A DNA stretch of 64,000 nt, from contig OZ360232.1 of assembly GCA_977017645.1 (NCBI GenBank), forward strand, positions 101,122,001-101,186,000, in the 5' to 3' direction. Below the pieces are notes generated by a model, which ran no database searches, was not told the DNA's origin, and was given only the letters and a program-made list of their open reading frames with translations. Of the stretch, positions 327-60,477 are shown one piece after another. This DNA is from Torpedo marmorata. Taxonomy: Eukaryota. Position numbers and translations under genes: made by a program. Position 1 is the first letter of the stretch. The number at the start of each line of letters is the position of its first letter.

Positions 327-886
327 ACGCGTTTCAATTAATTTACTAACAAAGTCCAATATGTTCAAAATGTTTATTAACACATGATGACTTGTAGCAA
401 TCTTCAATAACTTAAATATCTTCTTCAACGAAATATAAACAATTCTTGATAACGATGCTTAATAACAATTCTTCAAAACGTCTATAAACTTCATTTAAAC
501 AATTCCTTTAATACTCATTTAAACGTGGCTTTAAACGTTACTTTAAATGTCCTTTAAAAGGTCAATGAAAGATATGGCGATCTCACTCACCCTCCTCCGT
601 CGCCATCTTTTTCGATTCTTACTTCCCTGATTTGCGCATGCTCAATGCGCATATTCCACCGCACATACTCCACCGCGCATACTCCACCACGCATACTGCC
701 GTCACTTCCCAACTGCGCATGCTCCAGCCACTTCCCCACTGCGCATGCGCCCGTCGGCACTCCTGTGCATGCGCAGAGTACTAAATAGGCCCAGCACGGC
801 CTACTAACCTCCGCGTCTCCTCCGAAACCCGCCGAGACATCGGAGCGCCGCGACCAAGGTAAGTAATTAAGCTTACGGCTCTTACA
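327..886 (-). repeat. 3' LTR of BEL/Pao element (last ~60 bp displaced by the insertion at 1-326)
   Basis: Near-identical to 11427-11973, with several substitutions and a ~15 bp indel; preceded on the minus strand by the PPT. Confidence 0.88.
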
Positions 887-1093
887 CCGGCCCCTAATTA
901 TTATAATTAGACGCAATGTCTTAAATAATAATTACACAATCAATTATAAATAACAATAACCATATAACATTCAAACAATATACGAATCTTCTTTCTTCTT
1001 TCTTCATAAGACCAGAGTTTACCATAACTCTGAATCAACAAAAGTCTGTAACCTGTGAAGTATACAACAACAAATAAAGTCAGTTTGTATTTA

Positions 1094-1276
1094 TCAAAGT
1101 TCCTCCGTCTCCAACAGAAGGCAGACTTTGTTAATAGGTCTATTTAGAAAGCCGGTCTTAGTTTTAATTCGAACTTAACGCACAAGACCCCTTTTGTCCT
1201 GAATGGTGTCAATAATTTTTTCAAGTAACCAGGAGTTTATTGGAGTTGAATCGTTCACAATAATTACAATGTCTCC
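1094..1276 (-). pseudogene. C-terminal tail of BEL/Pao integrase (DUF5641-like)
   Basis: Minus-strand translation GDIVIIVNDSTPINSWLLEKIIDTIQDKRGLVR*VRIKTKTGFLNRPINKVCLLLETEEL* matches the typical BEL pol end (GD.V.....P...W.LGRI.....D..G.VR.V.IKT....L.RPI.K.CLL); one internal stop. Confidence 0.8.
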
Positions 1277-1663
1277 TCAAAGTTCTTTTATTTCCAGAAT
1301 CTTTGAGTTAAAATGTCGACCAGTAAACCTCAAATCTTCCTCAGACAAAATAGATACAGTTTTTCTTTTGAATTTTGCACGAGGCACTTCTTCAGCATGT
1401 CGTTTCACTTTAATCCTTTCTTCAGCATTCCACTTCTCATGTGAAGAATTTAAACTCTTAGAACTAGAATTTGAATATTTATCTGATCCTCTCGATTTTA
1501 ATAAACGAGTCTCTTTAACCACTCTGGTTTCTATTGCCTTTTCCTGCAATTCCAAATCCAATTTTGCAACTTTTAATTCAGTCTCAGTTCTTTCTGAAAA
1601 ATTAATAACTTGATCTGAAGTCAAAATATCATGTGATACATTGATATTTCTGTTGTGAACCCT

Positions 1664-1962
1664 GCTGAGGTAAACTTGAATTTTTTGAATTTCTTCATCT
1701 TGCTTGTTACATTTCTGCAATGCAATATCACTTTCTTTCTGCATTGTTAATAGCTGAACATTCAATTTACATTCTTGATTTTTTTTGTAATCAACAGTTT
1801 TGTGTTATGAACCAATAACTTGTTCTCTTTCAAAATATTAATCTCTTCCTCCAACCTTTTACATTTTGAAAATGCTGAATCTCTTTCCTCAATAACTGTA
1901 TTCATTTCTTCAGCAGTTATTCTTTTCTTCCACTTTCTGACTTTGCGAATTTTACTTACAAT
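1664..1962 (-). pseudogene. MIPOL1: Captured MIPOL1-like coiled-coil fragment inside the BEL element
   Basis: IVSKIRKVRKWKKRITAEEMNTVIEERDSAFSKCKRLEEEI...(one A restored at the T8 run 1779-1786)...NQECKLNVQLLTMQKESDIALQKCNKQDEEIQKIQVY resembles vertebrate MIPOL1 as I recall it (RITAEEM..LIEERD.ALSKCKRLEQEL...NQERALKAKLLSMQQ...KKLEEEIQTLRVY). Recognition from memory, not a search. Confidence 0.65.
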
Positions 1963-2441
1963 TAAATCTTTCTGTTTACTGTTTTCATGATTATCTAATA
2001 TTTCCAATTCCCCTTTCAACATTTTGTTCTCTGAATTCAATTGCATTAAATTATTATTCACATTCTTCTTTATTCCATCAGCATAATTTCCTGTGTTCTC
2101 CAGTTTTACATCACATTGCAACATTTCTTCATTGACTTTGTCTGCTGTAAACTCTGAACTACAAAATCTACTTTCAGATTTGGTTCTCAGTCACTTGTTT
2201 TATTCCTGTATCTGATTCAATTACACATGAATAATCACTAGTATTATTCCAACATCTTCTAATACTTCATTCTTATCCATTTCTGATGAAAATAATTCCT
2301 TCAATGTTGTTTTAAATTCCTTTGATTTATTTTCACATTGATCTATTTTCTTTTCTTCAAAAGTGATTTTCTTATTCACAGTCTTTCGCTCTTCCCTTAA
2401 CTCATCAACTTTCACAACCGAAATCCTGTTAATATTTATCA

Positions 2442-3374
2442 CTAACTGTTCCAATGGTCCATTAATTGTCCAACCAAGCTTGGTCCATTGCCTCTACTCC
2501 GTATTATTTTTAGTGGCTCCAAAACCTTTGGTACATCTGAACCAATCAGCATTTCTATCTCAAAGTTAACTTCAGGTAAATAAACCTTCCACAGATAAGA
2601 CAAATGATGGAAATCATTTTGATGCAGAATGTTTCCTTCGTGCACAGGCATAGTCTTCTGAGTGTATAAACTTGGAAGATCACAACATTTTTTGTCATCC
2701 AATCCAGCAACCTCTAAGCCTGAAACAATGCTGGTTTCAACGACCTTTTCTTGTCCCATGGTTTTCAACATAATTTTTGACCTTCTTCCTTGAATATTAA
2801 GTTTGTTCATTAGTCCTTCCGTGCAAAAAGATGCAGTGCTGCCTGGGTCTAGAAATGCATATGTATGTACTATTGCATCCCCTTTCTTGGTCTTGACTTG
2901 TGCAGGCACTATTGAAAGTTTGCAGTTACCGGCCCCAGTAAGGCCACTTGTCTGAACCAAGGTTATAACATTGTTTTCTGTTGTTTCCTTTGTTTCTGTT
3001 TGCTCCTTTTCCAATTCCTTGTTTCTTTGATGGATATGCAACATTCTAGGATGTTTCAACTTACATATGTTACAATTAATTCGCTTCTCACAGTTTTTAC
3101 TGATGTGTCCTTTACACAAACAGCTAAACCATACTCCATATTCCTTTAAGAATGCAATCTTCTCATTATGTTCCTTCTTTTCCAACCGTAAACACATTTC
3201 CAAAGCATGTCCAGCTTTACAGAACAAACAACTCTTCTCATGAGTCAAACTTTCCTTTTCCTTATTTACTTTATCTTTTTCTTTATTTATAACCGACACA
3301 TTAGTAGCAAAAGTACTCCTTTTCAATTTTGAACTAGGCTGTGAGTTAGACCTCCTTATATCTTTGCTCCCCAT
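2442..3374 (-). pseudogene. BEL/Pao Gag Cys/His region and aspartic protease
   Basis: Triple Cys/His cluster (CLFCKAGHALEMC; degenerate WFSCLCKGHISKNC; CNICKLKHPRMLH) and protease motif YAFLDPGSTASF. After a frameshift it continues LGWTINGPL...NRISV, typical of BEL just before RT. Confidence 0.85.
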
Positions 3375-3511
3375 TGAATTGTTCTGGTATTTCCATATAT
3401 TGGATCTGTTTCAATGTACACCTGTCATTCAAGAAAATTTACCAAGTCCTTTAAATTAGCTCTTCGACCGTAATTTTCTTGTTTATCACAAGCAAAATTT
3501 CTCCATCTATC

Positions 3512-3973
3512 TCACAACTTGTAAGGTAATTTTTCTAAGATAATTCGCATATTACCAGGCACTTCAAGCTCACGAATATTATCGATATCTTCCATGGCAT
3601 TACAACATCCTCTTAAAAATAGAGTATATGCTTGTAGAGCCTTTACATCATTCTGATTTATTGATGTCCATTTAAGAGCTTTATCCATATAAGCTGAAGA
3701 AATTTGATGTTTGTTGCCAAAATGTTGTTCAAGTAAAGACTTAGCTCTGTCTAATCCTCTTTCTGAAGACATATGTTGACATCTCTTTACAAGTTCTCTT
3801 GGATGACCTTTTGTGAACATTTCCAAATAATAAAGACATTCATCAGGGTCTTGGCATTTATTTTCAATATTGCGTTTGAAAGATCTCATGAACGCTTGGT
3901 ACTGAAGTGGATCACCATCAAAAGTTTGTTTATCTTTCTTTGGCAAAGAAGAGAGAGACTGTAACTGAATCAA
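3512..3973 (-). pseudogene. BEL/Pao Gag capsid-like domain (DUF1759-like)
   Basis: FDGDPLQYQAFMRSF...CLYYLEMFTKGHPRELV...AKSLLEQHFG...ILEKLPYKL. Confidence 0.85.
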
Positions 3974-4237
3974 TGATGCAGCAATTTCATTTTGTGTTCC
4001 ATTGGATGATAATTAATTGCTCTGTTCACCACCTCTTGTTACAGGTAATGTATCTGGAAACCTCACTGGTGTAGTTTCTCCTATATTTCTGATGCTTGAC
4101 TCAAATGACAACGAAGCTGCATCATTCGACCGAACACAAGCCGCAGCTTTGTCTTTAGATGTTACCACTGGTACATGTGACTTGATACCAATATGCTCTT
4201 GAAGGATTTCTCCTTGTATTTGCAAGTCTTGTACCCC

Positions 4238-5038
4238 TCATATTAAAATATCTTCCCTTTTGGTTGGTTTCTTTTCCTGTGACTCTTTTTTAAAATATGA
4301 CCTTTTATTATCATATACTTTAGATAATTTACTTCGAGCACCAGATACCATTGAACCTTCTAGTACATCTTTTTTTGCCTTGGCAATAATAATGTTTGCT
4401 ACCAGCTCCTGCTGCTCCTTTCTCTGCCTTAGCTGCTCCTTCTCTTGCCTTATCTGCTGTTTTAGCTGCTCCTCCTTTTGCCTTAGCTGCTCCTCCTGTC
4501 CTTCTAAAATATGTTTATCCTTAAGCGTTTTTTTGTCATGCAGGAAGAGCGGTGAAGTTAACTTCAATCTTTGTATGTGACGATGCAGAACTTGAAGTAC
4601 TAGAAACTCTGGAACTCGAACCAGAACTTCGTTTGCTTCTCCTGCTTTCAGCATTTGAGACACTGTCACTTGCTTGCATTTCGTCCTGCAGGTCATATGT
4701 TGTCTTCTTACCTCTTTCTCCAATTCGAATTGTACATCCTTTGCATCTTCATCCTCTTCATTTTCTTCATCCTCTTCATTTGGTGACACATTTTCAGTCA
4801 TTTCCTGGCTATCTTCTTGTACATCTAACAAAGCCACCTCTTCTTCCTTTGCCAGCTTCAATCTTGTGATGAGAACCTTTTTCTTTCCACTTATATCTGG
4901 TTTCATTCGCTTCAATTCTTCTTTAATATCCGCAACCTTCATGTCTTTAATACGTTGGTCCTTAACAGCAACATCAGCGGTTGTTGCGTCAGCTACCGGT
5001 ACATCAGTGGCTGCTGCATCAGAGGCTGCTGCGGCCAT
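4238..5038 (-). pseudogene. BEL/Pao Gag N-terminus with SAP-like motif, acidic tract and coiled coil (frameshifted)
   Basis: ATG at 5038 (AAAATGG context). IKDMKVADIKEELKRMKPDISGKKKVLITRL fits the SAP consensus; EQL(R/K)Q repeats follow. Confidence 0.65.
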
Positions 5039-5444
5039 TTTACTCGTCTTGTTCCACCGTCCTTCTAGCATACACAACACTAGCCAAATCAACAGTCCCC
5101 AATGGACCATCGGCAGCAAATCCAATCTGTGTTCTAACTTCCCAAAGATACACAGAAGGTGTCCACAGACTTATTCCTACTACTTCAGATGACTGTAATG
5201 TGCTGCTATTCACAAACAAGTTTCCACCACAGCATCCGTCAATATTATCGCAGATTTTACAGAAATGGTTTCTCCAACGTATTTATAGGACACTTTACTA
5301 TAAGTTTTGAAGCTGTAAATCCCTCTGTGGCTGTTATTCATGGCAGATGGATGTGGATTACAAACTGCCCATAACTCGAGGCATCTCCAAGATGGCCGCA
5401 TTTTATTTTAAATATCAGTCCAAAACAAAGAGAGATTATTCTAT

Positions 5445-6308
5445 TGTTATGGACCATGACTGACCATTTGGACTGTGGACGGTCAGCAGGAAGGATGAAT
5501 TCTTTTGGAGTATACACTGGGGCCAGGTACTGAAAAAGTTAACTTCCCCAGGACTTGGTGTACCCAGAGAGAGAGAGAGAGAGAGACAGACAGACTGTGG
5601 AATAGATACATTGTTGCACTTTTGCAAAAAGCAGGGGCAGATCTCTGCAAAGCAGACAGTTGTGAGTTGCAAGGCTACAGAACAGCCAGATCCAGTTTTG
5701 TGTGCAAAGGTCAGAGAAAGACTGACAAAATAGCACATGGCCTCCTGTCTCAGAGAAAAATTCTGAGAAAAGCAACTTCTGTGGAGAACAGGCGTGAGAT
5801 CAGCGAGACTAGCTGTGAGATTCAAGCATACGCCTAAATCAGAGATATACTGATCTGGAACTTGCAATCCTTATGAACCTACAAGAAGGGGACGTCATCA
5901 GAGAAGAAAACAAGTATTTGTAAGCATAATCAGTCATTTGTCTCTCTCCAACGTTCATTCAGAAGTACTTCTTCCAGACCCAGAGCTGAAGTGAAGCCTG
6001 AACTTAGAGAGTGGATTTTTTTTGGACTGTATCTTTTGTTTTTTTGACTGACTTGTTGTTTTATGACTGACCTGGGGTTTTTGGGGAAAGTTTTTCCATT
6101 TTTACATAAGGGTTGGGCACAGACTGTAATGGTCTGGGCTTTACACACACACACATTCACCTTTTAGATAAGAATAGAGTTTATAGACGTTTATAGTGGG
6201 GTTAATTGGTGTGAAATTATATGTTTACTTGTGTTTAATAAATAATAATTTCAATTTTTACCCCTTTTGCATTGCGTCTTCTGTCGTTGCTGGTTTGATT
6301 CTGTAACA
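5445..6308 (+). repeat. 5' LTR of Gmr1-like copy 1
   Basis: TG...CA direct repeat of 10449-11312; contains (GA)n, (CA)n and AATAAA. Confidence 0.95.
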
Positions 6309-6311
6309 AAT

Positions 6312-6335
6312 TGGGGGCTCGTTGCGGGATTTGAA
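6312..6335 (+). promoter_or_regulatory. Primer-binding site complementary to tRNA-Pro 3' end
   Basis: TGGGGGCTCGTTGCGGGATTTGAA, 3 nt after the LTR, versus the tRNA-Pro complement TGGGGGCTCGTCCGGGATTTGAA. Confidence 0.85.
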
Positions 6336-6441
6336 TCAAAATCCATCTTGGTAATTGAAGGAATCCCAGTTTGGTTTAAGGCATTCCTTTTTGGTAAAGC
6401 TAATTAAAAGCTAGTGGGTGTGTAACAAAAAACCAGCAACA

Positions 6442-9400
6442 ATGGATGTGGAACATTTTTTGGAATCACCTGAACCTGATACTTTAAAAAAGGCGAAAAA
6501 GGAACAGTTAGTGGCTATAGCAACAGAGTTGGGCATTGCTTCTGTAAAACCATCTATGAAAAAGGCAGAGATTGGGAGAAAAATTGTCAAGTACTATATA
6601 AAAGAAAAAAAATTGGAGGAGATTGCGTGTTAGAGCAGTTTCCCAAGGGTAAACCTTCTGAAAACATACAGTTGGAATTAAAGAAATTGGAATTGGAGGC
6701 AGCCAGAGAACAAAAGAAATTAGAATTGGAGGCAGACAGGGAACAAAAGAATAGGGAATTGGAACAGAGGAAATTAGAATTGGAGATAGCCAGGGAACAG
6801 AAGAGATTAGACTTAGAGAATGAGGAGAAAAATAGGATATATATGCTGGAAAAGATAAAGTTGGAAAATGAGAGGAGACAAGAAGAGCGCCAAGATCAAA
6901 TTCGTCATCCTGCTGAGGGGTTTTTGGCTAGTAGAGAAGTTAGGTTGGTTCCTCCATTTGAGGAGGCAGAAATAGATAAGTACTTCCAACATTTTGAGAA
7001 AGTGGCTGTGAAATTAAAATGGCCACAAGACCAATGGTCTCTTATGTTACAAAGTGTAATAAAAGGAAAAGCTCAGCAAGCTTATTCTACTCTCACCACG
7101 GAACAAGCTGCTGATTATGAAACGGTGAAGAAGGCTATACTCCAGGCTTATGAGTTAGTTCCAGAGGCTTATAGACAGAAGTTTAGAAATCTAAAAAGAT
7201 CAGCAACCCAATCTTATACAGAGTTTGCCTATGAAAAAGTTGTGTGTTTTGACAGGTGGTGCACATCTAAGGAAGTAAACAATGATTACAATCAATTGAG
7301 AGAATTGATAATAATCGAGGAGATTAAAAGGTGTGTTCCTGAGGATATTAAGGTATACTTAGATGAAAAGGAGGTGAAAACTTGGCGAGATTCAGCTAAG
7401 TTGGCAGATGGATATGCTTTAACCCACAAGCCTAAGTGGACGTCAGGTAGAATTTTCCAAAAGGTCACGGTGGATAATCAGAAGCAAGTGGAAAGTAAAT
7501 TTGGAAGTGGTGTTAAGGAAAGGGATGAAGGAAAGTGGAAAAGGGAAAACAATTCGGGTCCCATTTGCCACTACTGTAGAAAGGCTGGTCATATGCTAGC
7601 AAGCTGTCCAGTGTTGAAAAAGAAGAGAGAAAAGGATGCAACACCTAATGCTTGTATTCAGAGTGAGAAGATGCATAACACCCAGGAAGGAGATAAATTT
7701 ACTGACCAAGTTAAAGACGTATTTAAACCTTTTGTGACTGATGGTTTTGTTTCAGTTAAGGCAGGATCAAAACAAGTGCCAGTGAAAATCTTGAGAGATA
7801 CTGGAGCTGCTCAGTCACTTGTGTTAGATAGTGTCTTGGAATTTTGTGAAGCTACTGACACCGGTGACATAAATTTAATAAAAGGAATTGGTGGTGAAGT
7901 TGAGTCCATTCCTTTGCACAAAATAGTATTGAACTCAGACTTGGTGGAAGGACCAGTTATAATAGGAGTGAGATCAGAATTGCCAGTAGATGGAGTCTCA
8001 CTGTTGTTAGGCAATGACTTGGCCAAGGGTAAAGTCGTTCCTGCAGTGCGAATGACCACTAAGCCAGTCATTGATAAGTCAGAGAAAGACTCTGATATTT
8101 ATCCGGCATGTGCCATAACCAGGGCCATGTCTAAGAAAAATGTCACTGTAGAGAAGGCAGTGGAAAATAACTTGGTAAAAGAAAAAGAAACTGATAATCA
8201 AGAAAACCTGGAAAAGGTTGAGCAATCTCCTATGTTACACCCATCCACTGATAAGACACCTAAAGGCACAGATTTGTCACTATCCCGACAGGAGTTAATA
8301 GCAAGGCAAAAGGACGATCCGGATCTTGCTGAGGTGAGGGATAAGGTTTTCTCTGAAGAAGAGATTAAAAAGGTGCCAGTAGGTTATTATGAAAAAGATG
8401 GGGTGTTGATGAGACAGTGGAGACCACGTGATGTTCCTGCCAATGAAGAATGGGCAGTAGTGCAGCAGGTTGTGATCCCTAAAGTATATAGGGATGAAAT
8501 AATAACTTTGGCTCATAGTACACCCTTAGGTGGTCATCTTGGGGTGAAGAAAACTATAAGTAAGATAATGAAACAGTTTTATTGGCCCAGTTTAAGAAGG
8601 GAGGTTGTAAGCTTTTGCCGGGCCTGTCACACTTGTCAGGTGGTGGGTAAACCTAATCAGGGTCCCCCGGTGGCACCCTTGCAACCTATCCCTGCTTTCA
8701 GTGAGCCTTTCTCGAGAGTAATTGTGGACTGTGTTGGCCCATTGCCCAAAACCAAGGCGGGGAATGAATATTTGTTAACAATTATGTGTGCAGCCACCAG
8801 ATTTCCAGAGGCCATTCCTCTGAGAAACATAAAAGCAAAGTCAATTGTAAAGGCTATGGTAAAGTTTTTCACCTTGGTAGGTTTGCCAAGGGAAATTCAA
8901 TCAGATCAGGGCAGTAATTTCATGTCAGGCGTTTTCCAACAAGTGGTTGATGGACTAGGAGTTAAACAGATTGTATCCTCTGCGTACCATCCAGAAAGTC
9001 AAGGGGCCTTGGAGAGATTCCATTCAACTTTGAAAACCATGATTAGAACCTATTGTTGTGAGAAGGAAAAGGATTGGGATGAGGGGGTTCATTTGTTGTT
9101 ATTTGCAGCGAGGGAGTCTGTCCAAGATTCGCTTGGTTTTAGTCCATTTGAGTTAGTTTTCGGACATGAGGTGAGAGGTCCTTTAAGATTATTAAAAGAA
9201 CAGTGGATTAATCGTGATGTGCATTTAAATCTGTTAGATTATGTTTCCAAATTTAAGGATCGATTACATAGGGCTTGTGAGATGGCAAAGGAGAATTTGA
9301 AGGCTACTCAACAGAAAATGAAGGTTTGGTATGATCGAAAGGCGAAGATGAGAACTTTTAAACCTGGTGAGAATGTATTAGTTCTGTTTCCCATCCATTC

Positions 9401-10316
9401 AAATCCTCTTAGGGCTAGATTTTCAGGACCCTATAGAGTTAAGTCAAAAATTAATGATGTCACCTATGTCATAGAAACACCAAATCGCAGACGAGACACA
9501 CAGGTCTGTCATGTGAATATGATTAAGCCATATTTTGAACAGGTGCCTCACAAAGGGACTGAAAATTTACCAGAGGTACTGGTTATTGACAGGGGTAAGG
9601 AGGAGACAGATAAAACCAGTTTCAGAGAGGGTAATGGAAATGTTAATTCTCGGAGTTATGTTGTAGGACAGGGGAAGTTGGCGCCAGTAGAGGCAAAGGT
9701 TGTCGCTATTTCCGAGTTCCCTGTTCCAACTGGTAAGAAAACTCTGAGGAGGTTCCTGGGAATGATTGGCTACTACCGCAAGTTCTGTAAAAACTTTGCT
9801 GATCTTGTGCTCCCTCTCACAAATTTGCTTAGAAAGAAAGAGAAATTTGTATGGTCTACAGGTTGTCAGGAAGCATTTGTCAAATTGAAAGCCATGTTAT
9901 GCCACCAACCTGTGCTTAAGTCACCTAATTTAGAACAGTCGTTTTCTTTAGCCGTGGATGCGAGCGATGAAGCTGTGGGTGCGGTGCTGTTACAGAAGAA
10001 GAACGAAGAGGACATTGAACATCCGGTATCCTACTTCTCAAAGAAGTTCAATGATCATCAAAGGAATTATTCAACTATAGAGAAAGAGTTGTTGGCTCTT
10101 GTATTGGCTCTACAACATTTTGATGTGTATATCTGTACAGCTCAAAAACCACTCATAGTGTATACTGACCATAATCCATTGGTTTTTCTTTGTAAAATGA
10201 AAAATAAGAATCGACGGTTGTTGAATTGGAGTCTAATTTTGCAAGAATATAATTTGGTAATCACTCATATAAAAGGGAGAGATAATGTAATTGCTGATTG
10301 TCTTTCTAGATGTTAA
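6442..10316 (+). CDS. Gag-protease-integrase-(RT thumb)-RNase H polyprotein; one 2-bp insertion near 6623 separates the ATG from the 1229-codon frame
   Basis: Zn knuckle CHYCRKAGHMLASC; protease LRDTGAAQS; integrase HHCC (AHSTPLGGH..CRACHTC), D-D-E (VDCVGP, SDQGSNF, LERFH) and GPY; then only YVVGQG...RRFLGMIGYYRKF and RNase H (VDASD, EKELLA, TDH, ADCLSR). No YxDD motif. Confidence 0.9.
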
Positions 10317-10436
10317 ACTTTATTAATGAAAATAGTTCATATTTTGTATTTGTGGATAAACATTGTAGATTTTGTTTATATTCTGACACCTCACTTACTT
10401 TCCTAAATTTTGTTCTTGCAGACCAAAATTTCCTTT

Positions 10437-10448
10437 GAGGGAGGGAAG
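10437..10448 (+). promoter_or_regulatory. Polypurine tract
   Basis: GAGGGAGGGAAG immediately before the 3' LTR. Confidence 0.85.
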
Positions 10449-11312
10449 TGTTATGGACGATGACTGACCATTTGGACTGTGGACGGTCAGCAGGAAGGAT
10501 GAATTCTTTTGGAGTATACACTGGGGCCAGGTACTGAAAAAGTTAACTTCCCCAGGACTTGGTGTACCCAGAGAGAGAGAGAGAGAGAGACAGACAGACT
10601 GTGGAATAGATACATTGTTGCACTTTTGCAAAAAGCAGGGGCAGATCTCTGCAAAGCAGACAGTTGTGAGTTGCAAGGCTACAGAACAGCCAGATCCAGT
10701 TTTGTGTGCAAAAGTCAGAGAAAGACTGACAAAATAGCACATGACCTCCTGTCTCAGAGAAAAATTCTGAGAAAAGCAACTTCTGTGGAGAACAGGCGTG
10801 AGATCAGCGAGACTAGCTGTGAGATTCAAGCATACGCCTAAATCAGAGATATACTGATCTGGAACTTGCAATCCTTATGAACCTACAAGAAGGGGACGTC
10901 ATCAGAGAAGAAAACAAGTATTTGTAAGCATAATCAGTCATTTGTCTCTCTCCAACGTTCATTCAGAAGTACTTCTTCCAGACCCAGAGCTGAAGTGAAG
11001 CCTGAACTTAGAGAGTGGATTTTTTTTGGACTGTATCTTTTGTTTTTTTGACTGACTTGTTGTTTTATGACTGACCTGGGGTTTTTGGGGAAAGTTTTTC
11101 CATTTTTACATAAGGGTTGGGCACAGACTGTAATGGTCTGGGCTTTACACACACACACATACACCTTTTAGATAAGAATAGAGTTTATAGACGTTTATAG
11201 TGGGGTTAATTGGTGTGAAATTATATGTTTACTTGTGTTTAATAAATAATAATTTCAATTTTTACCCCTTTTGCATTGCGTCTTCTGTCGTTGCTGGTTT
11301 GATTCTGTAACA
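10449..11312 (+). repeat. 3' LTR of Gmr1-like copy 1
   Basis: Direct repeat of 5445-6308, followed by TSD CTAT. Confidence 0.95.
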
Positions 11313-11367
11313 CTATCTTCTTTCCTTCAATTTTCTGTTCCAAACAACCACTTTCATTGACTAACCA

Positions 11368-11973
11368 TATAGTGACTTCAATCCAACAAATAATCACTTG
11401 GAGGCTAGGTGAGACACTTGTTCTTGACGCGTTTCAATTACTTTACTAACAAAGTCCAATATGTTCAAAATGTTTATTAACACATGATGACTTGTAGCAA
11501 TCTTCAATAACTTAAATATCTTCTTCAACGAAATATAAACAATTCTTGATAACAATGCTTAATAACGATTCTTCAAAACGTCTATAAACTTCATTTAAAC
11601 GATTCCTTTAACATTCATTTAAACGTGGCTTTAAACGTTACTTTAAATGTCCTTTAAAAGGTCAATGAAAGATATGGCAATCTCACTCACACTCCTCCGT
11701 CGCCATCTTTTTCGATTCTTACTTCCCTGATTCGCGCATGCTCAATGCGAATACTCCACCACACATACTCCACCGCGCATACTGCCGTCACTTCCCAACT
11801 GCGCATGCTCCAGCCACTTCCCCACTGCGCATGCGCCCGTCGGCACTCCCGCGCATGCGCAGAGTACTAAATAGGCCCAGCACGGCCTACTAACCTCCGT
11901 GTCTCTTCCGAAACCCGCCGAGACCATCGGAGCACCGCAACCAAGGTAAGTAATTAAGCTTAAGGCTCTTACA
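11368..11973 (-). repeat. 5' LTR of BEL/Pao element
   Basis: Starts TGTAAGAGCC on the minus strand, matches 327-886, and is followed by TGG (possible PBS start). Inner boundary is approximate. Confidence 0.85.
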
Positions 11974-12410
11974 GGACCTTTCGAAGCATTAAATTTGATG
12001 AGCGCACCATCAAAGAAAGGAAACAACAGCACAAGTGTGACAAGTAAAAAAGAAAAATTGTTAAAACAAGAAAACTGCAGATGCTGGGGTCGTTTATCCA
12101 GCTACTTCTCATTTCTGCCATGCCATCTTATTTCTGCTTTCAGAATGTATTTTTTTTCTGCAGAAATGACTAAATGCAGACCCATGGATAATTAAAGGCA
12201 AAGATGCCAAAATTATATTAACATCATGGATGATTTAACTATTTGGTTCTCCGTAAGTACTGTCAGAAAAGTCAGGCAGCACTGCCTATTGAGCTGTTTA
12301 ATGTTTGAATTATGATGGAAACTTGAGTTATGATATGACCGTGCACTGGGCTTGCTCATTTATTGTTCCCAGGCCTGTAATTTAAAAAAAAAAATTCCTC
12401 CAAAATAATT

Positions 12411-13607
12411 ACACCCTGTCCCCTGCAAGGACTACACATCCTCACACCCTGTCCCCTGCAAGGACTCCATCCCCTTCTCTCAATTTCTCCGCTTCCGCCA
12501 CATCTGTTCCCAAGATGAGGTGTTCCACTCCAGATCTTCTGAAATGTCTGCCTTTTTCCACAAACGTGGCTTCCCCTCCACCACCATCAACTCAGCCCTC
12601 ACCCGCATCTCCTCCATTTCCCGCTCATCTGCCCTGGCCCCCTCTGCCCCCAGACGCAACAAACATAGAATACCCCTCATCCTCACCTACCACCCCACCA
12701 GCCTCCGCATCCAACACATTATCCGTCGGAATTTCCGGCACTTGCTGAAGGATCCCACCACCAGACACATTTTTCCTTCTCCTCCCCTCTCGGCCTTCCG
12801 TAGGGACCGCTCCCTCCGCTATTCACTCGTGCACTCGTCCCTCCCCACCCATCGCACCCCCGGAACCTTCCCCTGTGCCCACAGGAGGTGCAACACCTGC
12901 GCCCACACCTCCCCCCTCACCACGGTCCAGGGCCCCAAACAGGCCTTTCAAGTGAAACTACACTTCACTTGTACATCCAGAGGACTTATTTACTGCATCT
13001 GGTGCTCCCTTTGTGGCTTTCTATACATTGGAGAGACCGGTCGTAGATTGGGAGACCGCTTTGCTGAGCACCTCCTCTCCGTCCGCAACAACAGCGACCT
13101 CCCAGTAGCCAACCATTTCAATTCTGGGTCACACTCCCACACTCACATGTCTGTCCATGGCCTCATGTACTATCCCACCCAGACTACCCGCAAATTGGAG
13201 GAACAACATCTCATATTCCGTCTCGGCACTCTCCAGCCAGATGGAATTAACATTGACTTTTCTGCTTTCCACTAAACCTGCTTGTTGTTCCCTTCCCCTC
13301 CCCCTCACCTGTCCTTCCTGTTTTTTTCCACCCAACCAGCCATCCCTCCTCCCCCTCTTTGCTGCTCTCCCCTCCCTCCTTTCTCCACCTATCATCTCCT
13401 GCCTTTCCCACCCCCCTTCCCCCCTCACTCCTTTGTTCGGACGTCTGCCGGCATTTTCTCATACTTTGATGAAGGGCTCAAGCCCGAAACGTCGGTTATG
13501 TATTTCTACCTTTGCTACATAAAAGACACTGTTTGACCTGCTGAGTTCTCCAGCTTTTGTGTTTTTTACTTCAACCACGGTGTCTACAGATTTTCGTGTT
13601 TACTTTT
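12411..13607 (+). mobile_element. 5'-truncated Penelope-like element (GIY-YIG endonuclease + 3' pLTR)
   Basis: ORF 12520-13275 with CxxxRCNTC linker and LIYCI.C..C..LYIGETGRRL.DRF.EH ... VANHFN ... EQHLIFRLGTLQPDGIN. Possible TSD TAATTACA (12406-12413/13608-13615). Confidence 0.92.
13460..13500 (+). ncRNA. Minimal type I hammerhead ribozyme-like motif in Penelope pLTR
   Basis: CATACT-TTGATGA-AGGGC TCAA GCCC-GAAACGTC-GGTTATG: core boxes (C3U variant), stem II, palindromic ACGT, GUC site and short stem I. Confidence 0.65.
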
Positions 13608-15599: not shown

Positions 15600-17002
15600 C
15601 TCACTTATCCTCACCTACCACCCCACCAGACTCCACAATTTCTGAAACCTACAACATAATCTTACCACCTGACACATCTTCCCCTCTCCTCCTCTCTCCA
15701 CCTTCTGCAGGGACTGCTCTCTCCATGACACCCTCGTCCACTCATCCCTTCCCACTAATTGTCCCCTCAGTACCTAACCCTGTAACAGAAGAAATGCTAC
15801 ACATGTGCCCACACCTCATCCCTCACCACCATTTGGAGCTCCAAACAGTTCTTCCAAGTGAAGCAACACTTCACTTGTGAATCTGCGGGTTTCATCCATT
15901 GCATCCGCTGCTCCCATTGTGGCCTTCTCTACGTTGGACAGACTAGATGCAAACTCGGAGATTGCTTCACTCTGTCTGCAGTAATGGCGGGGATCTCCCA
16001 GTGGCTAACCATTTCAATTCTAGGCCACACTCCCACGCTGACATGTCTGTCTATGGTCTCATGCCCTGCCAAACTAAGGCCACCCATAAATTGGAGAAGC
16101 AACACCTAATATTCCATCTGGGCACTCTCCAAACCGGATGGCATTAACATTGACTTCTCGAGTTTCCGTTCAGCCACTCGCCTGTCTCCCTCTTCCCCAT
16201 CCCTCTGTCTCCTTTTCTCCAGCTATCCACCCCTTCTCTCTCCATTCAGAGAGCTATTCCCTCTGTTATGGACCATGACTGACCATTTGGACTGCGGACG
16301 GTCAGCAGGAAGGATGAAGTCTTTTGGAGTATACACTGGGGCCAGGTACTGAAAGAGTTAACTTCCCCAGCTACTTGGTGTACCCAGACAAGATACATTG
16401 TTGCACTCTTGGTGTACCCAGACAGAGAGAGACCAGAGAGAGAGAGAGAGAGACAGACTGGACAAGATACATTTGTTTCACTTTTGCAAAAAGCAGGTGC
16501 AGATTTCTGCAGGAAAAGCAGACAGTTGTGAGTTGCAAAGGCTACAGAACACAGCCAAATCCAGGTTTGTGCATAGTCAGAGAAAAGACTGACAGGATAG
16601 CACATGGCCTCCTGTCTCAGAGAAATTCTGAGAAAAAGCAACTTCTGTGGAGAACAGGCGTGAGATCAACGAGACTAGCTGTGAGATTCAAGCATACACC
16701 TAAATCAGTGGTATACTGATCTGAACTTGCAATCCTTATGAACATACCAGAAGGGGACGTCATCAGAAAATAAAACAAGTATTTGTAAGCATAAACAATC
16801 ATTGTCTCTCTCCAACGTTCATTCAGAAGTACTTCTACCAGACACAGAGCTGAATTGAAGCCTGAACTTAGAGAGTGAATCTTGTGGACTGTATTATTCT
16901 CTTTTTTTTGACTGACTTGTTTTTTATGACTGACCTGGGGTTTTTGGGGAAAGTTTTTCCATTTTTACATAAGGGTTGGGCACAGACTGTAATGGTCTGG
17001 GC

Positions 17003-17046
<44 letters not shown>

Positions 17047-17385
17047 TTAGATAAGAATAGTGTTTATAGATGTTTATAGTGGGGTTAATTGTTGTGAAAT
17101 TATATGTTTAATTGTCGTTAATAAATAGTAATTTCAATTTTACCCCTTTTGCATTGCGTCTTCTGTCGTTGCTGGTTTGAATTTGTAACACCTCCCTCTC
17201 TCACTTCTTAGCTTTTTTGTTTTGTTTGATCCTGTCCCTCCCCCACCATTTTATTCAGGGTCCTGCCTCCTTTTTGCTCATACCTTGATGAAGGGCTCAT
17301 ACCCGAAATGTTGGCTATGTATCTTTATCTTTACTTACTAAATAAGGAATGCTGCTGACTTGCTGAGTTTCTCCTGAATTTTTGT
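15600..17385 (+). mobile_element. Old degenerate Penelope-like 3' fragment, interrupted by a solo LTR
   Basis: Frameshifted GIY-YIG remnants (FIHCIRCSHCGLLYVGQT; PVANHFN; KLEKQHLIFHLGTLQ). The pLTR tail resumes at 17191 with a decayed hammerhead motif (~17279-17319). Confidence 0.8.
16264..17190 (+). mobile_element. Solo LTR of the Gmr1-like family
   Basis: TGTTATGGACC...TGTAACA with 4-bp TSD CCTC; internal short duplication (CTTGGTGTACCCAGACA twice) and expanded (CA)n at ~17006-17043. Confidence 0.93.
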
Positions 17386-20013: not shown

Positions 20014-21507
20014 AGAAAATGCCGGCAGGCGTCCGAACAAAGGAGTGAGGGGGGAAGGGGGGTGGCAAAGGCAGGAGATGATAGGGGGAGAAAGGAGGGA
20101 GGGGACAGCAGCAAAGAGGGGGAGGAGGGATGGCTGGGTGGGTGGGTGGAAAAAAACAGGAAGGACAGGTGAGGGGGGAGGGGGGAAGGGAACAACAAGC
20201 AGGTTTAGTGGAAAGCAGAAAAGTCAATGTTAATACCATCTGGCTGGAGAGTTCCGAGACGGAATATGAGATGTTGTTCCTCCAATTTGCGGGTAGTCTG
20301 GGTGGGATAGTACATGAGGCCATGGACAGACATGTGAGTGTGGGAGTGTGACCCAGAATTGAAATGGTTGGCTACTGGGAGGTCGCTGTTGTTGCGGACG
20401 GAGAGGAGGTGCTCAGCAAAGCGGTCTCCCAATCTACGACCGGTCTCTCCAATGTATAGAAAGCCACAAAGGGAGCACCGGATGCAGTAAATAAGTCCTC
20501 TGGATGTACAAGTGAAGTGTAGTTTCACTTGGAAGGCCTGTTTGGGGCCCTGGACCGTGGTGAGGGGGGAGGTGTGGGCGCAGGTGTTGCACCTCCTGCG
20601 GGCACAGGGAAAGGTTCCGGGAGTGCGATGGGTGGGAAGGGACGAGTGCACGAGTGAATCGCGGAGGGAGCGGTCCCTACGGAAGGCCGAGAGGGAAGGA
20701 GAAGGAAAAATGTGTCTGGTGGTGGGATCCTGCAGCAAGTGCCGGAAATTCCGGCGGATAATGTGTTGGAATTTCTGGCACTTGCTGCAGGATCCTACCA
20801 CCGGACACATTTTTCCTTCTCCTCCCCTCTCGGCCTTCCGTAGGGACCGCTCCCTCCGCGATTCACTCGTGCACTCGTCCCTCCCCACCCATCGCACCCC
20901 CGGAACCTTCCCCTGTGCCCGCAGGAGGTGCAACACCTGCGCCCACACCTCCCCCCTCACCACGGTCCAGGGTCCCAAACAGGCCTTCCAAGTGAAACTA
21001 CACTTCACTTGTACAGCCAGAGGACTTATTTACTGCATCCGGTGCTCCCTTTGTGGCTTTCTATACATTGGAGAGACCGGTCGTAGATTGGGAGACCGCT
21101 TTGCTGAGCACCTCCTCTCCATCCGCAACAACAGCGACCTCCCAGTAGCCAACCATTTCAATTCTGGGTCACACTCCCACACTCACATGTCTGTCCATGG
21201 CCTCATGTACTATCCCACCCAGACTACCCGCAAATTGGAGGAACAACATCTCATATTCCGTCTCGGCACTCTCCAGCCAGATGGCATTAACATTGACTTT
21301 TCTGCTTTCCACTAAACCTGCTTGTTGTTCCCTTCCCCCCCTCCCCCCTCACCTGTCCTTCCTGTTTTTTTCCACCCACCCACCCAGCCATCCCTCCTCC
21401 CCCTCTTTGCTGCTGTCCCCTCCCTCCTTTCTCCACCTATCATCTCCTGCCTTTGCCACCCCCCTTCCCCCCTCACTCCTTTGTTCGGACGCCTGCCGGC
21501 ATTTTCT

Positions 21508-26170: not shown

Positions 26171-26775
26171 GGCATCTCACTTAAATTTCAATAAAAGTTT
26201 ATTGTGCATCTTAGAAAGTAGTGCAACCGTTACCTATTAAAGTTTTGGACTAAAGTTTTTCATTTAACATTGGAAAGTCATGTATAACAATAAGTAAGAT
26301 TTGACATAAGATGTCATTGAAAGTATTTGGCACATCGTAGAAAGCAGTGCATCCTTATGGTCTTAACGTTTTGGAACGACCATTTCACAGTTACATATAA
26401 CTTTATTTATACTTTGACACATAAGATGAGGCATCTCACTAAAGTGTCACTGAAAGTTTTCAGCACATCGGCAGCAGTAGTGCATCTTTAATTTCTTGAA
26501 CTTTTGAAATGAGCATTTAACAGTCATGAACACAAAGTAGTGGATCTTTAAATTCCTAAAGTTTGGAATGAACATTTAAAGGTCGTGAACACGAACTTGG
26601 GTTTCTTTAAATTCTTAATGTTTGGAGCGAACATTTGAAAATCATGAATAAGAATATATGACCTTTTAAACTGTTAACCAATAATTAAAACTATATATAA
26701 ATGTAAACATTCTAACTTTTGAAATAAACCTCTGATTATCTGGCAAAATATGTGCAATGTTTTGACCTGCCATTC

Positions 26776-54670: not shown

Positions 54671-57600
54671 TGTTATGGACCATGGCTGACCATTTGGACT
54701 GCGGACGGTCAGCAGGAAGGATGACGTCTTTTGGAGTACACACTGGGGCCAGGTACTGAAAAAGTTAATTTCCCCAGGACTTTGTGTACCCAGAGAGAGA
54801 GAGAGAGAGAGAGCAGAGAGAGACAGACTGTGGAAAAGATACATTGTTGCACTTTTGCAAAAAGCAGGGGCAGATCTCTGCAAAGCAAACAGTTGTGAGT
54901 TGCAAAGGCTACAGGACACAGCCAAATCCAGGCGTGTGCAAAGTCAGAGAAAAGACTGACAGGATAGCACATGGCCTCCTGTCTCAGAGAAATTCTGAGA
55001 AAAAGCAACTTCTGTGGAGAACAGACGTGAGATCAGCGAGACTAGCTGTGAGATCCAAGCACACCCCTAAATCAGTGGTATACTGTTCTGAACAGACAAT
55101 CCTTATGAACACCCAAGAAGGGGACGTCATCAGAGAAGAAAACAAGTATTTGTAAGCATAAACAGTCATTGTCTCTCTCCAACGTTCATTCAGAAGTACT
55201 TCTACCAGACACAGCTGAATTTGAAACCTGAACTTAGAGAGTGAATCTTGTGGACGGTATTATTCTCTTTTTTTGACTGACTTGTTTTTTTATGACTGAC
55301 CTGGGGTTTTTGGGGAAAGTTTTACCATTTTTACATAGGGGTTGGGCACAGACTGTAGTGGTCTGGGCTTTACACACACACACACCTTTTAGATAAGAAT
55401 AGAGTTTATAGACGTTTATAGTGGGGTTAATTGTTGTGAAATTATATGTTTACTTGTGTTTAATAAATAATAATTTCAATTTTACCCCTTTTGCATTGCG
55501 TCTTCTGTCGTTGCTGGTTTGATTTTGTAACAAATTGGGGGCTTGTCTGGGATTTGAATTAAAAATCCATCTTAGTAATTGAAGGAATCCCAGTTTGGTT
55601 TAAGGCATTCCTTTTGTAAAGCTAATTAAAAGCTAGTGTGTGTGTAACAAAAAACCAGCAACAATGGATGTAGAACATTTTTTGGAATCACCTGAACCTG
55701 ATACTTTAAAAAAGGCGAAAAATGAACAGTTAGTGGCTATAGCAACAGAGTTGGGCATTGCTTCTGTAAAATCATCTATGAAAAAGGCAGAGATTGGGAG
55801 AAAAATTGTCAAATACTATATAAAAGAAAAAAAATTGGAGGAGAGCGTGTTAGAGCAGTTTCCCAAGGGTAAACCTTCTGAAAACATACAGTTGGAATTA
55901 AAGAAATTGGAATTGGAGGCAGCCAGAGAACAAAAGAAATTAGAATTGGAGGCAGACAGGGAACAAAAGAAATTAGAATTGGAATTGGAACAAAAGAAAT
56001 TAGACATGGAATTGGAAATAAAGAGACACGAGAACGATGAGAGAAATAGGAGATATATGCTGGAAAAGATAAAGTTGGAAAATGAGAGGAGAAAAGAAGA
56101 GCGCCAAGATCAAATTCATCATCCTGCTGAGGGGTTTTTGGCTAGTAGAGAAGTTAGGTTGGTTCCTCCATTTGAGGAGGCAGAAATAGATAAGTACTTC
56201 CAACATTTTGAGAAAGTGGCTGTGAAATTAAAATGGCCACAAGACCAATGGTCTCTTATGTTACAAAGTGTAATAAAAGGAAAAGCTCAGCAAGCTTATT
56301 GTACTCTTACCACGGAACAAGCTGCTGATTATGAAACGGTGAAAAAGGCTATACTCCAGGCTTATGAGTTAGTTCCAGAGGCTTATAGACAGAAGTTTAG
56401 AAATTTAAAAAGATCAGCAACCCAATCTTACACAGAGTTTGCCTATGAAAAAGTTGTGTGTTTTGACAGGTGGTGCACATCTAAGGAAGTAAACAATGAT
56501 TACAATCAATTGAGAGAATTGATAATAATCGAGGAGATAAAAAGGTGTGTTCCTGAGGATATTAAGGCATACTTAGATGAAAAGGAGGTGAAAACCTGTC
56601 AAAATTCAGCTAAGTTAGCAGATGAATATGCTTTAACCCACAAGCCTAAGTGGACGTCAGGTAGAATTTTCCAAAAGGTCTCTGTAGATAATCAGAAGCA
56701 AGTGGAAAGTAAATTTGGAAGTGGTGTTAAGGAAAGGGATGAAGGAAAGTGGAAAAGGGAAAACAATTCCAGTCCCATTTGCCACTACTGTAGGAAGGCT
56801 GGTCATATGCTAGCAAGCTGTCCAGTGTTGAAAAAGAAGAGAGAAAAGGATGCAACACCTAATGCTTGTATTCAGAGTGAGAAGATGCATAACACCCAGG
56901 AATGAGATAAATTTACTGACAAAGTTAAAGATGTATTTAAACCTTTTGTGACTGATGGTTTTGTTTCAGTTAAGGCAGGATCAAAACAAGTTCCAGTGAA
57001 AATCCAGCGAGATACTGGAGCTGCTCAGTCACTTGTGTTAGATAGTGTCTTGGAATTTTGTGAAGCTACTGACACCGGTGACATAAATTTAATTAAAGGA
57101 ATTGGTGGTGAGGTAGAGTCCATTCCTTTGCACAAAATAGTATTGGACTCAGACTTGGTGGAAGGACCAGTTATAATAGGAGTGAGATCAGAGTTGCCAG
57201 TAGAAGGAGTCTCACTGTTGTTAGGCAATGACTTGGCCAAGGGTAAAGTAGTTCCTGCAGTGCGAATGACCACTAAGCCAGTCATTGATAAGTCAGAGAA
57301 AGACTCTGATATTTATCCGGCATGTGCCATAACCAGGGCCATGTCTAAGAAAAATGTCACTGTAGAGAAGGCAGTGGAAAATAACTTGGTAAAAGGAAAA
57401 GAAACTGATAATCAAGAAAACCTGTAAACAGTTGAGCTATCTCCTATGGTACACCCAACCACTGATAAGACACCTAAAGACACAGATTCGTCACTATCCC
57501 GACAGGAGTTAATAGCAAGGCAAAAGGACGATCCTGATCTTGTTGAGGTGAGGGATAAGGTTCTCTCTGAAGAGGAGATTAAAAAGGTGCCAGTAGGTTA

Positions 57601-60477
57601 TTATGAAAAAGATGGGGTGTTGATGAGAAAGTGGAGACCACGTGATGTTCCTGCCAATGAAGAATGGGCAGTAGTGCAGCAGGTTGTGATCCCTAAAGTA
57701 TATAGGGATGAAATAATAACTTTGGCTCATAGTACACCCTTAGGTGGACACCTTGGGTTGAAGAAAACTATAAGGAAGATAATGAAACAATTTTATTGGC
57801 CCAGTTTGAGAAGGGAGGTTGTAAGCTTTTGCCGGGCCTGTCACACTTGTCAGGTGGTGGGTAAACCTAATCAGGGTCCCCCGGTGGCACCCTTGCAACC
57901 TATCCCTGCTTTCAGTGAGCCTTTCTCGAGAGTAATTGTGGACTGTGTTGGCCCATTGCCTAAAACCAAAGCGGGGAATAAGTATTTGTTAACAATTATG
58001 TGTGCAGCCACCAGATTTCCAGAGGCCATTCCTCTGAGAAACATAAAAGCAAAGTCAATTGTAAAGGCTATGGGAAAGTTTTTCACCTTGGTAGGTTTGC
58101 CAAGGGAAATTCAATCAGATCAGGGCAGTAATTTCACGTCAGGCGTTTTCCAACAAGTGGTTGATGGACTAGGAGTTAAACAGATTGTATCCTCTGCGTA
58201 CCATCCAGAAAGTCAAGGGGCCTTGGAGAGGTTCCATTCGACTTTGAAAAACATGATTTGAACCTATTGTTGTGAGAAGGAAAAGGATTGGGATGAGGGG
58301 GTTCATTTGTTGTTATTTGCAGCGAGGGAGTCTGTCCAAGACTCACTTGGTTTTAGTCCATTTGAGTTAGTTTTCGGACATGAGGTGAGAGGTCCTTTAA
58401 GATTATTAAAAGAACAGTGGATTAATCGTGATGTGCATTTAAATCTGTTAGATTATGTTTCCAAATTTAAGGATCGATTACATAGGGCTTGTGAGATGGC
58501 AAAGGAGAATTTAAAGGCCACTCAACGGAGAATGAAGGTTTGGTATTATCGAAAGGCGAAGATGAGAACTTTTAAACCTGGTGAGAACGTATTAGTTCTG
58601 TTTCCCATCCATTCAAATCCTCTTAGGGCTAGATTTTCAGGACCTTATAGAGTTAAGTCAAAAATTAATGATGTCACCTATGTCATAGAAACACCTAATC
58701 GCAGACTGTCATGTGAATATGATTAAGCCATATTTTGAACAGGTGCCACACAAAGGGACAGGGGTAAGGAGGAGACAGATAAAACCAGTTTCAGAGAGGG
58801 TCATAGGACTGTTAATTCTCTGAGTTATGTAGTAGGACAGGGGAAGTTGGTGCCAGTAGAGGAAAAGTTTGTGACTATTTCCGAGTTCCCTGTTCCAACT
58901 GGTAAGAAAACTCTGAGGAGGTTCCTGGGAATGATTGGCTACTACCGCAAGTTCTGTAAAAACTTTGCTGATCTTGCGCTCCCTCTCACAAATTTGCTTA
59001 GAAAGAAAGAAAAATTTGTATGGTCAACAGGTTGTCAGGAAGCATTTGTCAAATTGAAAGCCATGTTATGCCACCAACCTGTGCTTAAGTCACCTAATTT
59101 AGAACAGTCGTTTTCTTTAGCCGTGGATGCGAGCGATGAAGCTGTGGGTGCGGTGCTGTTACAGAAGAAGAACGAAGAGGACATTGAACTTCCGGTATCC
59201 TACTTCTCGAAGAAGTTCAATGATCATCAAAGGAATTATTCAACCATAGAAAAAGAGTTGTTGGCTCTTGTGTTGGCTCTACAACACTTTGATGTGTATA
59301 TCTGTACAGCTCAAAAACCACTCATAGTGTATACTGACCATAATTCATTGGTTTTTCTTTGTAAAATGAAAAATAAGAATCGACGGTTGTTGAATTGGAG
59401 TCTAATTTTGCAAGAATATAATTTGGTAATCACTCATATAAAAGGGAAAGATAATGTAATTGCTGATTGTCTTTCGAGATGTTAAACTTTATCAATGAAA
59501 ATAGTTCATATTTTGTATTTGTGGATGAACATTGTAGATTTTGTTTATATTCTGACACCTCAGTTACTTTCCTAAATTTTGTTCTTGCAGACCAAAATTT
59601 CCTTTGTGGGTGGGAGGTGTTATGGACCATGACTGACCATTTGGACTGCGGACGGTCAGCAGGAAGGATGAAGTCTTTTGGAGTACACACTGGGGCCAGG
59701 TACTGAAAAAGTTAATTTCCCCAGGACTTTGTGTACCCAGAGAGAGAGAGAGAGAGAGCAGAGAGAGACAGACTGTGGAAAAGATACATTGTTGCACTTT
59801 TGCAAAAAGCAGGGGCAGATCTCTGCAAAGCAAACAGTTGTGTGTTGCAAAGGCTACAGGACACAGCCAAATCCAGGCGTGTGCAAAGTCAGAGAAAAGA
59901 CTGACAGGATAGCACATGGCCTCCTGTCTCAGAGAAATTCTGAGAAAATGCAACTTCTGTGGAGAACAGGCGTGAGATCAGCGAGACTACCTGTGAGATC
60001 CAAGCACAAGCCTAAATCAGTGGTATACTGATCTGAACAGACAATCCTTATGAACACCCAAGAAGGGGACGTCATCAGAGAAGAAAACAAGTATTTGTAA
60101 GCATAAACAGTCATTGTCTCTCTCCAACGTTCATTCAGAAGTACTTCTACCAGACACAGCTGAATTTGAGTCCTGAACTTAGAGAGTGAATCTTGTGGAC
60201 TGTATTATTCTCTTTTTTTGACTGACTTGTTTTTTTATGAATGTCCTGGGGTTTTTGGGGAAAGTTTTACCATTTTTACATAGGGGTTGGGCACAGACTG
60301 TAGTGGTCTGGGCTTTACACACACACACACCTTTTAGATAAGAATAGAGTTTATAGACGTTTATAGTGGGGTTAATTGTTGTGAAATTATATGTTTACTT
60401 GTGTTTAATAAATAATAATTTCAATTTTACCCCTTTTGCATTGCGTCTTCTGTCGTTGCTGGTTTGATTTTGTAACA
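54671..60477 (+). mobile_element. Gmr1-like LTR retrotransposon lacking the RT core (copy 2, more decayed)
   Basis: LTRs 54671-55532 and 59618-60477, TSD ATAT, PBS TGGGGGCTTGTCTGGGATTTGAA (tRNA-Pro, CpG-decayed) at 55536; colinear with copy 1. Confidence 0.95.
55664..59485 (+). pseudogene. Gag-PR-IN-(RT thumb)-RNase H of copy 2, with stops (56903, 57425, 58259) and small deletions (~58705, ~58760)
   Basis: ORF pieces are nearly identical to 6442-10316; the Gag N-terminus is in frame in this copy. Confidence 0.92.

Follow-up and report, generated by a model that had tools for sequence, protein, structure and literature searches.

The window, i.e. the whole 64-kb stretch of DNA analysed here, contains two copies of a Gmr1-like Ty3/Gypsy retrotransposon in which the polymerase core of the reverse transcriptase (RT) is missing through an in-frame deletion, while the remaining enzyme domains are retained. 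We consider it somewhat more probable than otherwise that these copies represent an RT-minus subfamily which spreads on RT from full-length relatives, and whose own protein, comprising Gag, protease, integrase, RT thumb and RNase H, is likely to be made and used.

Layout of the element and the missing RT core

Copy 1 is a 5,868-bp LTR retrotransposon at 5445-11312 on the plus strand, with TG...CA LTRs of 864 bp each. Its features are as follows:

5441..5444, repeated at 11313-11316, +, 4-bp target site duplication (TSD) CTAT, from flank comparison
5445..6308, +, 5' LTR, 864 bp, TG...CA, 4 differences from the 3' LTR
6309..6330, +, putative primer-binding site directly 3' of the LTR, assigned by position alone
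6442..6633, +, start of gag (ATG 6442), the frame ending at 6631-6633 after a copy-1 frameshift near 6620-6625
7161..7430, +, SCAN-like capsid domain, PF02023 (Pfam, E 2.6e-11)
7566..7607, +, CCHC zinc knuckle (Pfam and motif reading)
7710..8114, +, aspartic protease region with DTG at 7797 (homology; dN/dS 0.10)
8475..9533, +, integrase with HHCC finger, D-D-E core (8727, 8904, 9012) and SH3-like C-terminus (Pfam; dN/dS 0.17)
9543..9629, +, 29-codon linker with the in-frame deletion join, about 250 RT fingers/palm codons missing (tblastn)
9630..9656, +, decayed remnant of the end of the RT palm (column conservation against homologs)
9657..9899, +, RT thumb (homology and match to the Ty3 structure)
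9900..10316, +, RNase H with four acidic active-site motifs, then a natural stop (Pfam; dN/dS 0.13)
10431..10448, +, polypurine tract (sequence reading)
10449..11312, +, 3' LTR (LTR pair)

The Pfam matches in copy 1 run in the order SCAN-like capsid, zinc knuckle, integrase finger, core and C-terminus, and RNase H, with rve at residues 743-838 and an RNase H-like match at residues 1125-1257. The open frame measures 1278 codons (stop to stop). This long frame is without the gag start, as ATG 6442 lies in a different frame, and because the frame of that ATG is closed by the frameshift, copy 1 is not an intact gag-pol. The N-terminal region of gag (6675-6850 in copy 1, 55895-56030 in copy 2) contains 33-bp coiled-coil repeats, which differ between the copies far more than the remaining gag.

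The first-pass annotation had described an in-frame join of integrase to thumb and RNase H with no YxDD motif, and this join is real. In a tblastn comparison with P0004, an RT-plus protein from Pristis pectinata, residues 1-916 matched 6855-9542 and residues 1197-1424 matched 9630-10313, i.e. 280 residues of P0004 are replaced by 29 codons in copy 1, a net loss of about 250, in frame, that takes all of the RT fingers and nearly all of the palm including YxDD (a motif found in 119/120 homologs). Pfam gave no RVT_1 match in copy 1, and there was no match to a Gmr1 RT core anywhere within the 64-kb window. In copy 1, 71 aa separate the end motif of the integrase from the thumb motif, compared with about 320 aa in homologs (the 16 of 120 in which both motifs were readable, all in the 300-339 bins). 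RT had been thought to resume at YVVGQG; its homology in fact begins nine codons earlier, at about 9630, in the decayed remnant, which we take to be the primer-grip region of the RT palm, whereas the reading of a thumb and of an RNase H with its acidic residues kept was right. The retained piece aligns with Ty3 RT residues 260-475 (PDB 4OL8), i.e. thumb plus RNase H, and both the integrase D-D-E and the RNase H acidic motifs are present. With the RT fingers and the palm with YxDD absent, copy 1 is not an autonomous Gmr1 element.

By every feature that could be assessed the element is Gmr1-like Ty3/Gypsy. The Gmr1 clade is reported to have its integrase upstream of the RT region (PMC8220671) and one gag-pol frame (PMC11117352), and a SCAN-like capsid has been linked with it (PMC8321522). 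Copy 1 is alike in all three, with integrase upstream of RNase H (the order from which the Gmr1 placement had originally been made), a single frame from capsid to RNase H and a SCAN-like capsid domain; it differs from the clade in lacking the RT fingers/palm and YxDD, in being non-autonomous, and in its dimensions (5.8-5.9 kb with 860-bp LTRs). A tree of 19 rows without outside clades placed its pol closest to other integrase-first elements. The nearest named relatives are from rays and a sawfish, P0004 being the nearest, which makes a cartilaginous fish the likely host. The best protein match was 59% identical over gag-integrase and 80% over thumb-RNase H, and thumb-RNase H is 77-80% identical to RT-plus integrase-first proteins; protein searches and an HMMER scan returned no close RT-plus or RT-minus relative above 72% identity. 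Two Gmr1-like animal retrotransposon proteins, P0124 and P0554, stand under bacterial names at NCBI (a clam symbiont MAG and Campylobacter sp.), which is probably host contamination.

RT deletions were also seen elsewhere. In BLAST probes, 35 of 345 other integrase-first proteins had a shortened integrase-thumb distance and 11 of the 345 had integrase joined to thumb or RNase H without any RT core, some of these being gene models and possibly false splices; all seven of the 11 that were looked up were singletons. The type of deletion is therefore common in Gmr1 copies, and it is the amplification under selection that is unusual. The RT deletions in P0144, P0193, P0428 and P0440 end nearly alike, just before VG.G at the thumb start, a position that is a possible deletion hotspot. 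Large Gag-integrase clusters without RT (P0477, P0476, P0532, P0487, P0573) were considered as RT-less families and rejected, since their member lengths are mixed, three of them have members of 1520-1640 aa, and they look like stop-truncated copies.

The window holds several other elements. Copy 1 sits inside a minus-strand BEL/Pao-like element (window 327-11973), which has long direct repeats at 327-886 and 11427-11973 that are 94% alike, a SAP and DUF1759 gag and a protease motif; three-frame translation revealed a coiled-coil-like stretch and no recognisable RT, RNase H or integrase core, and another stretch presumably resembles an integrase tail. This is possibly a second non-autonomous LTR family, and a related repeat lies at 53218-53816. 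Penelope-like GIY-YIG 3' ends occur at 12409-13275 and 20173-21347 and include two inverted arms of 580 bp, 98% complementary and separated by 15 bases. A Harbinger/PIF-like transposon at 24322-28213 has a DDE_Tnp_4 transposase (+) facing a Myb/SANT protein (-). A near full-length L1-like LINE (33707-38597) has several frames (ORF1-like, endonuclease, RT-like) and an inverted partial match at 30822-31864, and an unrelated Gypsy-like element on the minus strand (62557-64000) has the usual RNase H-then-integrase order.

Separate insertions, constraint and decay at the join

The window contains a second copy and a solo LTR of the same family:

54671..60477, +, copy 2, TSD ATAT, LTRs 54671-55532 and 59618-60477, RT deletion as in copy 1
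56903, 57425 and 58259, +, stop codons of copy 2
near 58705 and 58756, +, frameshifting deletions of 14 and 31 bases in copy 2, just 5' of the join
58739..58825, +, join region of copy 2, with the palm remnant from 58799
16264..17190, +, solo LTR of the same family as copies 1 and 2, with its own TSD, CCTC

As the first-pass annotation had claimed, copy 2 has the same join (its thumb HSP from P0004 starts at 58799 in tblastn) together with its own LTRs and TSD, ATAT as against CTAT in copy 1. The three insertions thus have three different 4-bp TSDs, and their LTRs are of the TG...CA type, with a polypurine tract seen. LTR divergence (K) is 0.0046 within copy 1 and 0.0165 within copy 2, and is about 0.085 between the copies; the coding regions of the two differ by 3.5%. 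Their 2-kb flanks have only unrelated repeats in common, with no collinear match. Given the differing TSDs, the unrelated flanks and the LTR distances, copies 1 and 2 are separate insertions that came from different source elements at different times, and segmental duplication, which had been named as a possible refutation, is ruled out. The breaks in the reading frame are specific to each copy, and because both copies are broken neither demonstrates a working polyprotein.

We compared substitutions between copy 1 and copy 2; the resulting dN/dS figures describe one pair of sequences with small counts. dN/dS was 0.20 for the capsid (P=0.005), 0.10 for the protease (P=0.0002), 0.17 for the integrase (P=4e-6), 0.13 for RNase H (6 synonymous and 3 replacement changes; P=0.003), 0.21 for thumb plus RNase H (P=0.001) and 0.30 overall (P=2e-10). 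For the thumb alone it was 0.35, which is not significant (P=0.12), and four of the five thumb replacements cluster beside the join, a pattern that also fits hitchhiking. Neither the protease-integrase linker (1 synonymous, 7 replacement) nor the join (0.48) is constrained. The three RNase H replacements compare with 3.4 predicted from post-insertion decay by the LTR clock and 22.9 under neutrality. In the table of contig differences (38 of the 40 rows listed, from a total of 148) the integrase had 15 synonymous and 4 replacement changes and RNase H had 8 and 3, counts that overlap the differences between copies 1 and 2, are not independent of them, and leave out two rows past the stop. Judged from these substitutions, purifying selection between the copies is shown in every retained enzyme domain, and the range of 0.10-0.20 for capsid, protease and integrase, with the RNase H value, disposes of neutral evolution, the other refutation foreseen. 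Selection had been read earlier from the length of the open frame, given as 1229 codons; selection stands through dN/dS, but the frame itself (1278 codons) is weak evidence, copy 1 being young and frameshifted. When the two LTRs of a copy differ by only 0.5%, an open frame carries little information, and the case for selection must come from substitutions.

Within the retained RT, the palm remnant alone has decayed, thumb and RNase H being spared. Using columns conserved among 133 non-redundant RT-plus homologs, we found that in its nine codons 3 of 4 conserved columns were off in copy 1 and 2 of 4 in copy 2, compared with 1/117 and 4/117 elsewhere in thumb-RNase H (P=6e-5 and 0.012). By region, the next 20 codons had 1 and 3 of 9 columns off in copies 1 and 2 and the thumb 0/33. 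Two of the off columns (9648 and 9654) are common to both copies, so the palm was already dead in the common ancestor of the two. The stem branch of thumb-RNase H was 0.15, similar to the branch of RT-plus P0004 at 0.13. The palm decay common to both copies, with the TSDs, flanks and LTR distances, bears out the view that the deletion came before at least two independent insertions.

Contigs from 4 of 19 listed sequencing runs (X1, X2, X3 and X6) were aligned to 8400-10448; the list contained no RNA run, and runs with a small share were left aside. The coded run organisms B, C and E are possibly relatives of the host species, or samples into which host DNA was mixed; the alignments therefore carry no claim of species range, and contig depth (Logan) was not taken as copy number. 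The join was bridged without a gap in two of the four runs, which come from separate studies: record 28 of X6 covers 9375-9693 with 5 differences, at a depth of 7.5 compared with 6-11 beside it, and record 12 of X2 covers 9568-9703, also with 5 differences, total X2 depth at 9654 being 25 compared with 33-40 beside it. No piece bridging the join was listed for X3, and a loose end of this run at 9637 (2 contigs, agreement 0.62) was set aside as uninterpretable.

X1 gave 96,866 contigs on the 2,049 bases, a number which points to a very diverse, high-copy family. Its summed depth fell from 1-2 million to 72,000 at 9654 (about 5% of the level elsewhere); dense mismatches to copy 1 may be the cause, and a large RT-plus share is also possible. 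In this run 84 contigs had a variant at 9654 away from contig ends, and 29 extended beyond 9655 in the 5' direction by a few bases that would suit an intact palm end. These 29 loose ends (median length 12) are a hint of an RT-plus relative, being too short for proof, and could derive from less decayed RT-minus copies. Contigs about 87-90% alike (record 29 of X6, record 5 of X1) are the only hints of relatives, and no RT-plus partner sequence was recovered in the protein searches or the aligned contigs.

A model for movement and its alternatives

An LTR element without a polymerase needs RT in trans. Borrowing of RT must accordingly be inferred for this one, with a full-length relative as the simplest donor. 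On the model we favour, the deletion of about 250 RT codons would have come first and the separate insertions afterwards. Intact source copies would be translated as one polyprotein, which would co-assemble with the helper polyprotein and favour its own RNA, as reported for the IAP 1-delta-1 element (PMC6466679); the helper RT would then copy the RNA of the RT-minus element, and the element's own integrase would insert the copy. That Gag, protease and integrase are under selection implies that copying of the element is raised by the proteins it encodes. Inside the particle, RNase H activity is likely supplemented by the thumb-RNase H piece, the step of which we are least sure.

Dimerisation of Ty3 RT takes place on nucleic acid. 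The enzyme is described as an asymmetric homodimer with polymerase activity in one subunit and RNase H activity in the other, subunit B, whose RNase H and thumb must move together (PMC5371799); this division of labour makes a role for thumb-RNase H plausible. Subunit B of Ty3 is a full-length chain, whereas the window element retains only the piece matching 260-475 of 4OL8, and the literature searched described no natural RNase H donor without fingers and palm. By analogy with Ty3, a naturally split RT, in which the polymerase-less thumb-RNase H module would be the RNase H-donating partner of the borrowed RT, is a speculative proposal that we think rather unlikely.

The main rival, less probable than our model but a real contender, is that a full-length helper mobilises the element while thumb-RNase H lies idle and seems conserved because template switching in mixed particles refreshes it with helper sequence that selection maintains, so that only DNA tightly linked to the join decays, and that Gag, protease and integrase may be partly borrowed likewise. 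Consistent with this, decay peaks at the join and weakens in the 3' direction through the next 20 codons into the thumb, and competent cattle ERVs are reported to recombine with defective ones, exchange being hampered near the boundary between them (PMC10924933). The gradient is, however, no less expected on the view that the palm remnant alone has lost its function. Such refreshing also needs a close and often co-packaged helper, and none was seen in contigs or protein searches; the relatives hinted at (about 87-90% alike) are further away than the copies are from each other (3.5%).

The first-pass annotation had suggested that RT might be borrowed from a complementary partner lacking gag or integrase. 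No such partner was seen, and an ordinary full-length helper is simpler. In the strict form of this idea the RT donor would itself be defective (without integrase or gag) and the two could move only jointly, which would explain the selection on Gag, protease and integrase. A mirror Gmr1 family does exist in another genome (an ENA assembly; P0016-P0120), where 101 of 102 listed members are without the integrase finger/core and keep gag and/or RT-RNase H. Their join is mostly similar, near residues 776-1026 of the full-length relative P0021; the representatives checked are 92-99% identical to P0021, many with long open frames, and clusters have up to 299 members. P0144, of the same family as P0021, is a one-off RT-less copy. 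The mirror family is just 50-59% identical to the window element, has its own full-length member in P0021 and is not known to be present in this host or to be the partner of this element. Moreover, no integrase-minus relative was seen, and X1 depth over the integrase is similar to that over RNase H. We regard an obligate pair as improbable.

Very improbable is a series of repeated retrocopies of spliced RNA from full-length masters, with selection inherited from the masters; it would account both for the sameness of the join in copies that have diverged and for dN/dS being low throughout, but the palm-end changes at 9648 and 9654, common to both copies, are unlikely in a master with a working RT. 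A single dead deletion, evolving neutrally and spread by segmental duplication, or else an artefact of assembly, can practically be dismissed even though one-off in-frame RT deletions are common in Gmr1, given the different TSDs and flanks, the LTR distance of 8.5% between copies compared with 0.5-1.7% within them, the overall dN/dS, and the bridging of the join by contigs of two other studies.

Known non-autonomous elements and implications

Our preferred model, mobilisation by a full-length relative's RT with the element's own proteins in use, has partial parallels. Mouse IAP 1-delta-1 is also reported as a non-autonomous yet successful element, whose fusion protein helps in cis (PMC6466679), and like the window element it has an in-frame internal deletion making a fusion. 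It is an ERV whose 1.9-kb deletion takes part of gag and pol, whereas the window element has lost the polymerase core alone and keeps gag, protease, integrase and RNase H entire. The wheat elements RLG_Sabrina_SA, RLG_WHAM and RLG_Quinta, and TR-GAG, are reported to keep a coding frame without RT, the proposal being that they supply protein and are cross-mobilised (PMC9744471, PMC11302176, bioRxiv 10.64898/2026.03.01.708851). These wheat and TR-GAG elements keep Gag or Gag-protease and have neither RT nor integrase, whereas here integrase D-D-E and RNase H are present and under selection. By analogy, the window element would work like the semi-autonomous wheat elements, but it falls outside their definition because integrase and RNase H are kept. 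The features given for semi-autonomous partners are a shared primer-binding site, shared LTR ends and overlapping ages (PMC9744471).

Sugar-beet families with pol remnants are described as partly decayed, whereas here integrase and RNase H are under purifying selection. In the cattle ERVK[2-1-LTR] C/D system the defective form is reported to outnumber the competent elements that mobilise it, with recombination between the two (PMC10924933); the D-type elements are described as having no intact ORFs, and the ratio of defective to competent elements was measured in cattle. In the openly accessible papers searched we found no report of an RT-less Gmr1 family keeping integrase and RNase H.

The survey of full-length elements in PMC11117352 requires an RT domain. 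Surveys with this requirement would miss an RT-minus family or score it as debris, although it is apparently abundant. The non-autonomous LTR elements in the literature searched keep nothing, or Gag and protease only. An element that has lost the polymerase core alone, with integrase and RNase H still under selection, offers a natural experiment on which of the proteins of a retrotransposon work in cis, and on whether RNase H can function without its polymerase. If the split RT were true, then, together with the mirror integrase-less family, it would mean that Gmr1 elements repeatedly divide pol functions among co-packaged subfamilies that help one another.
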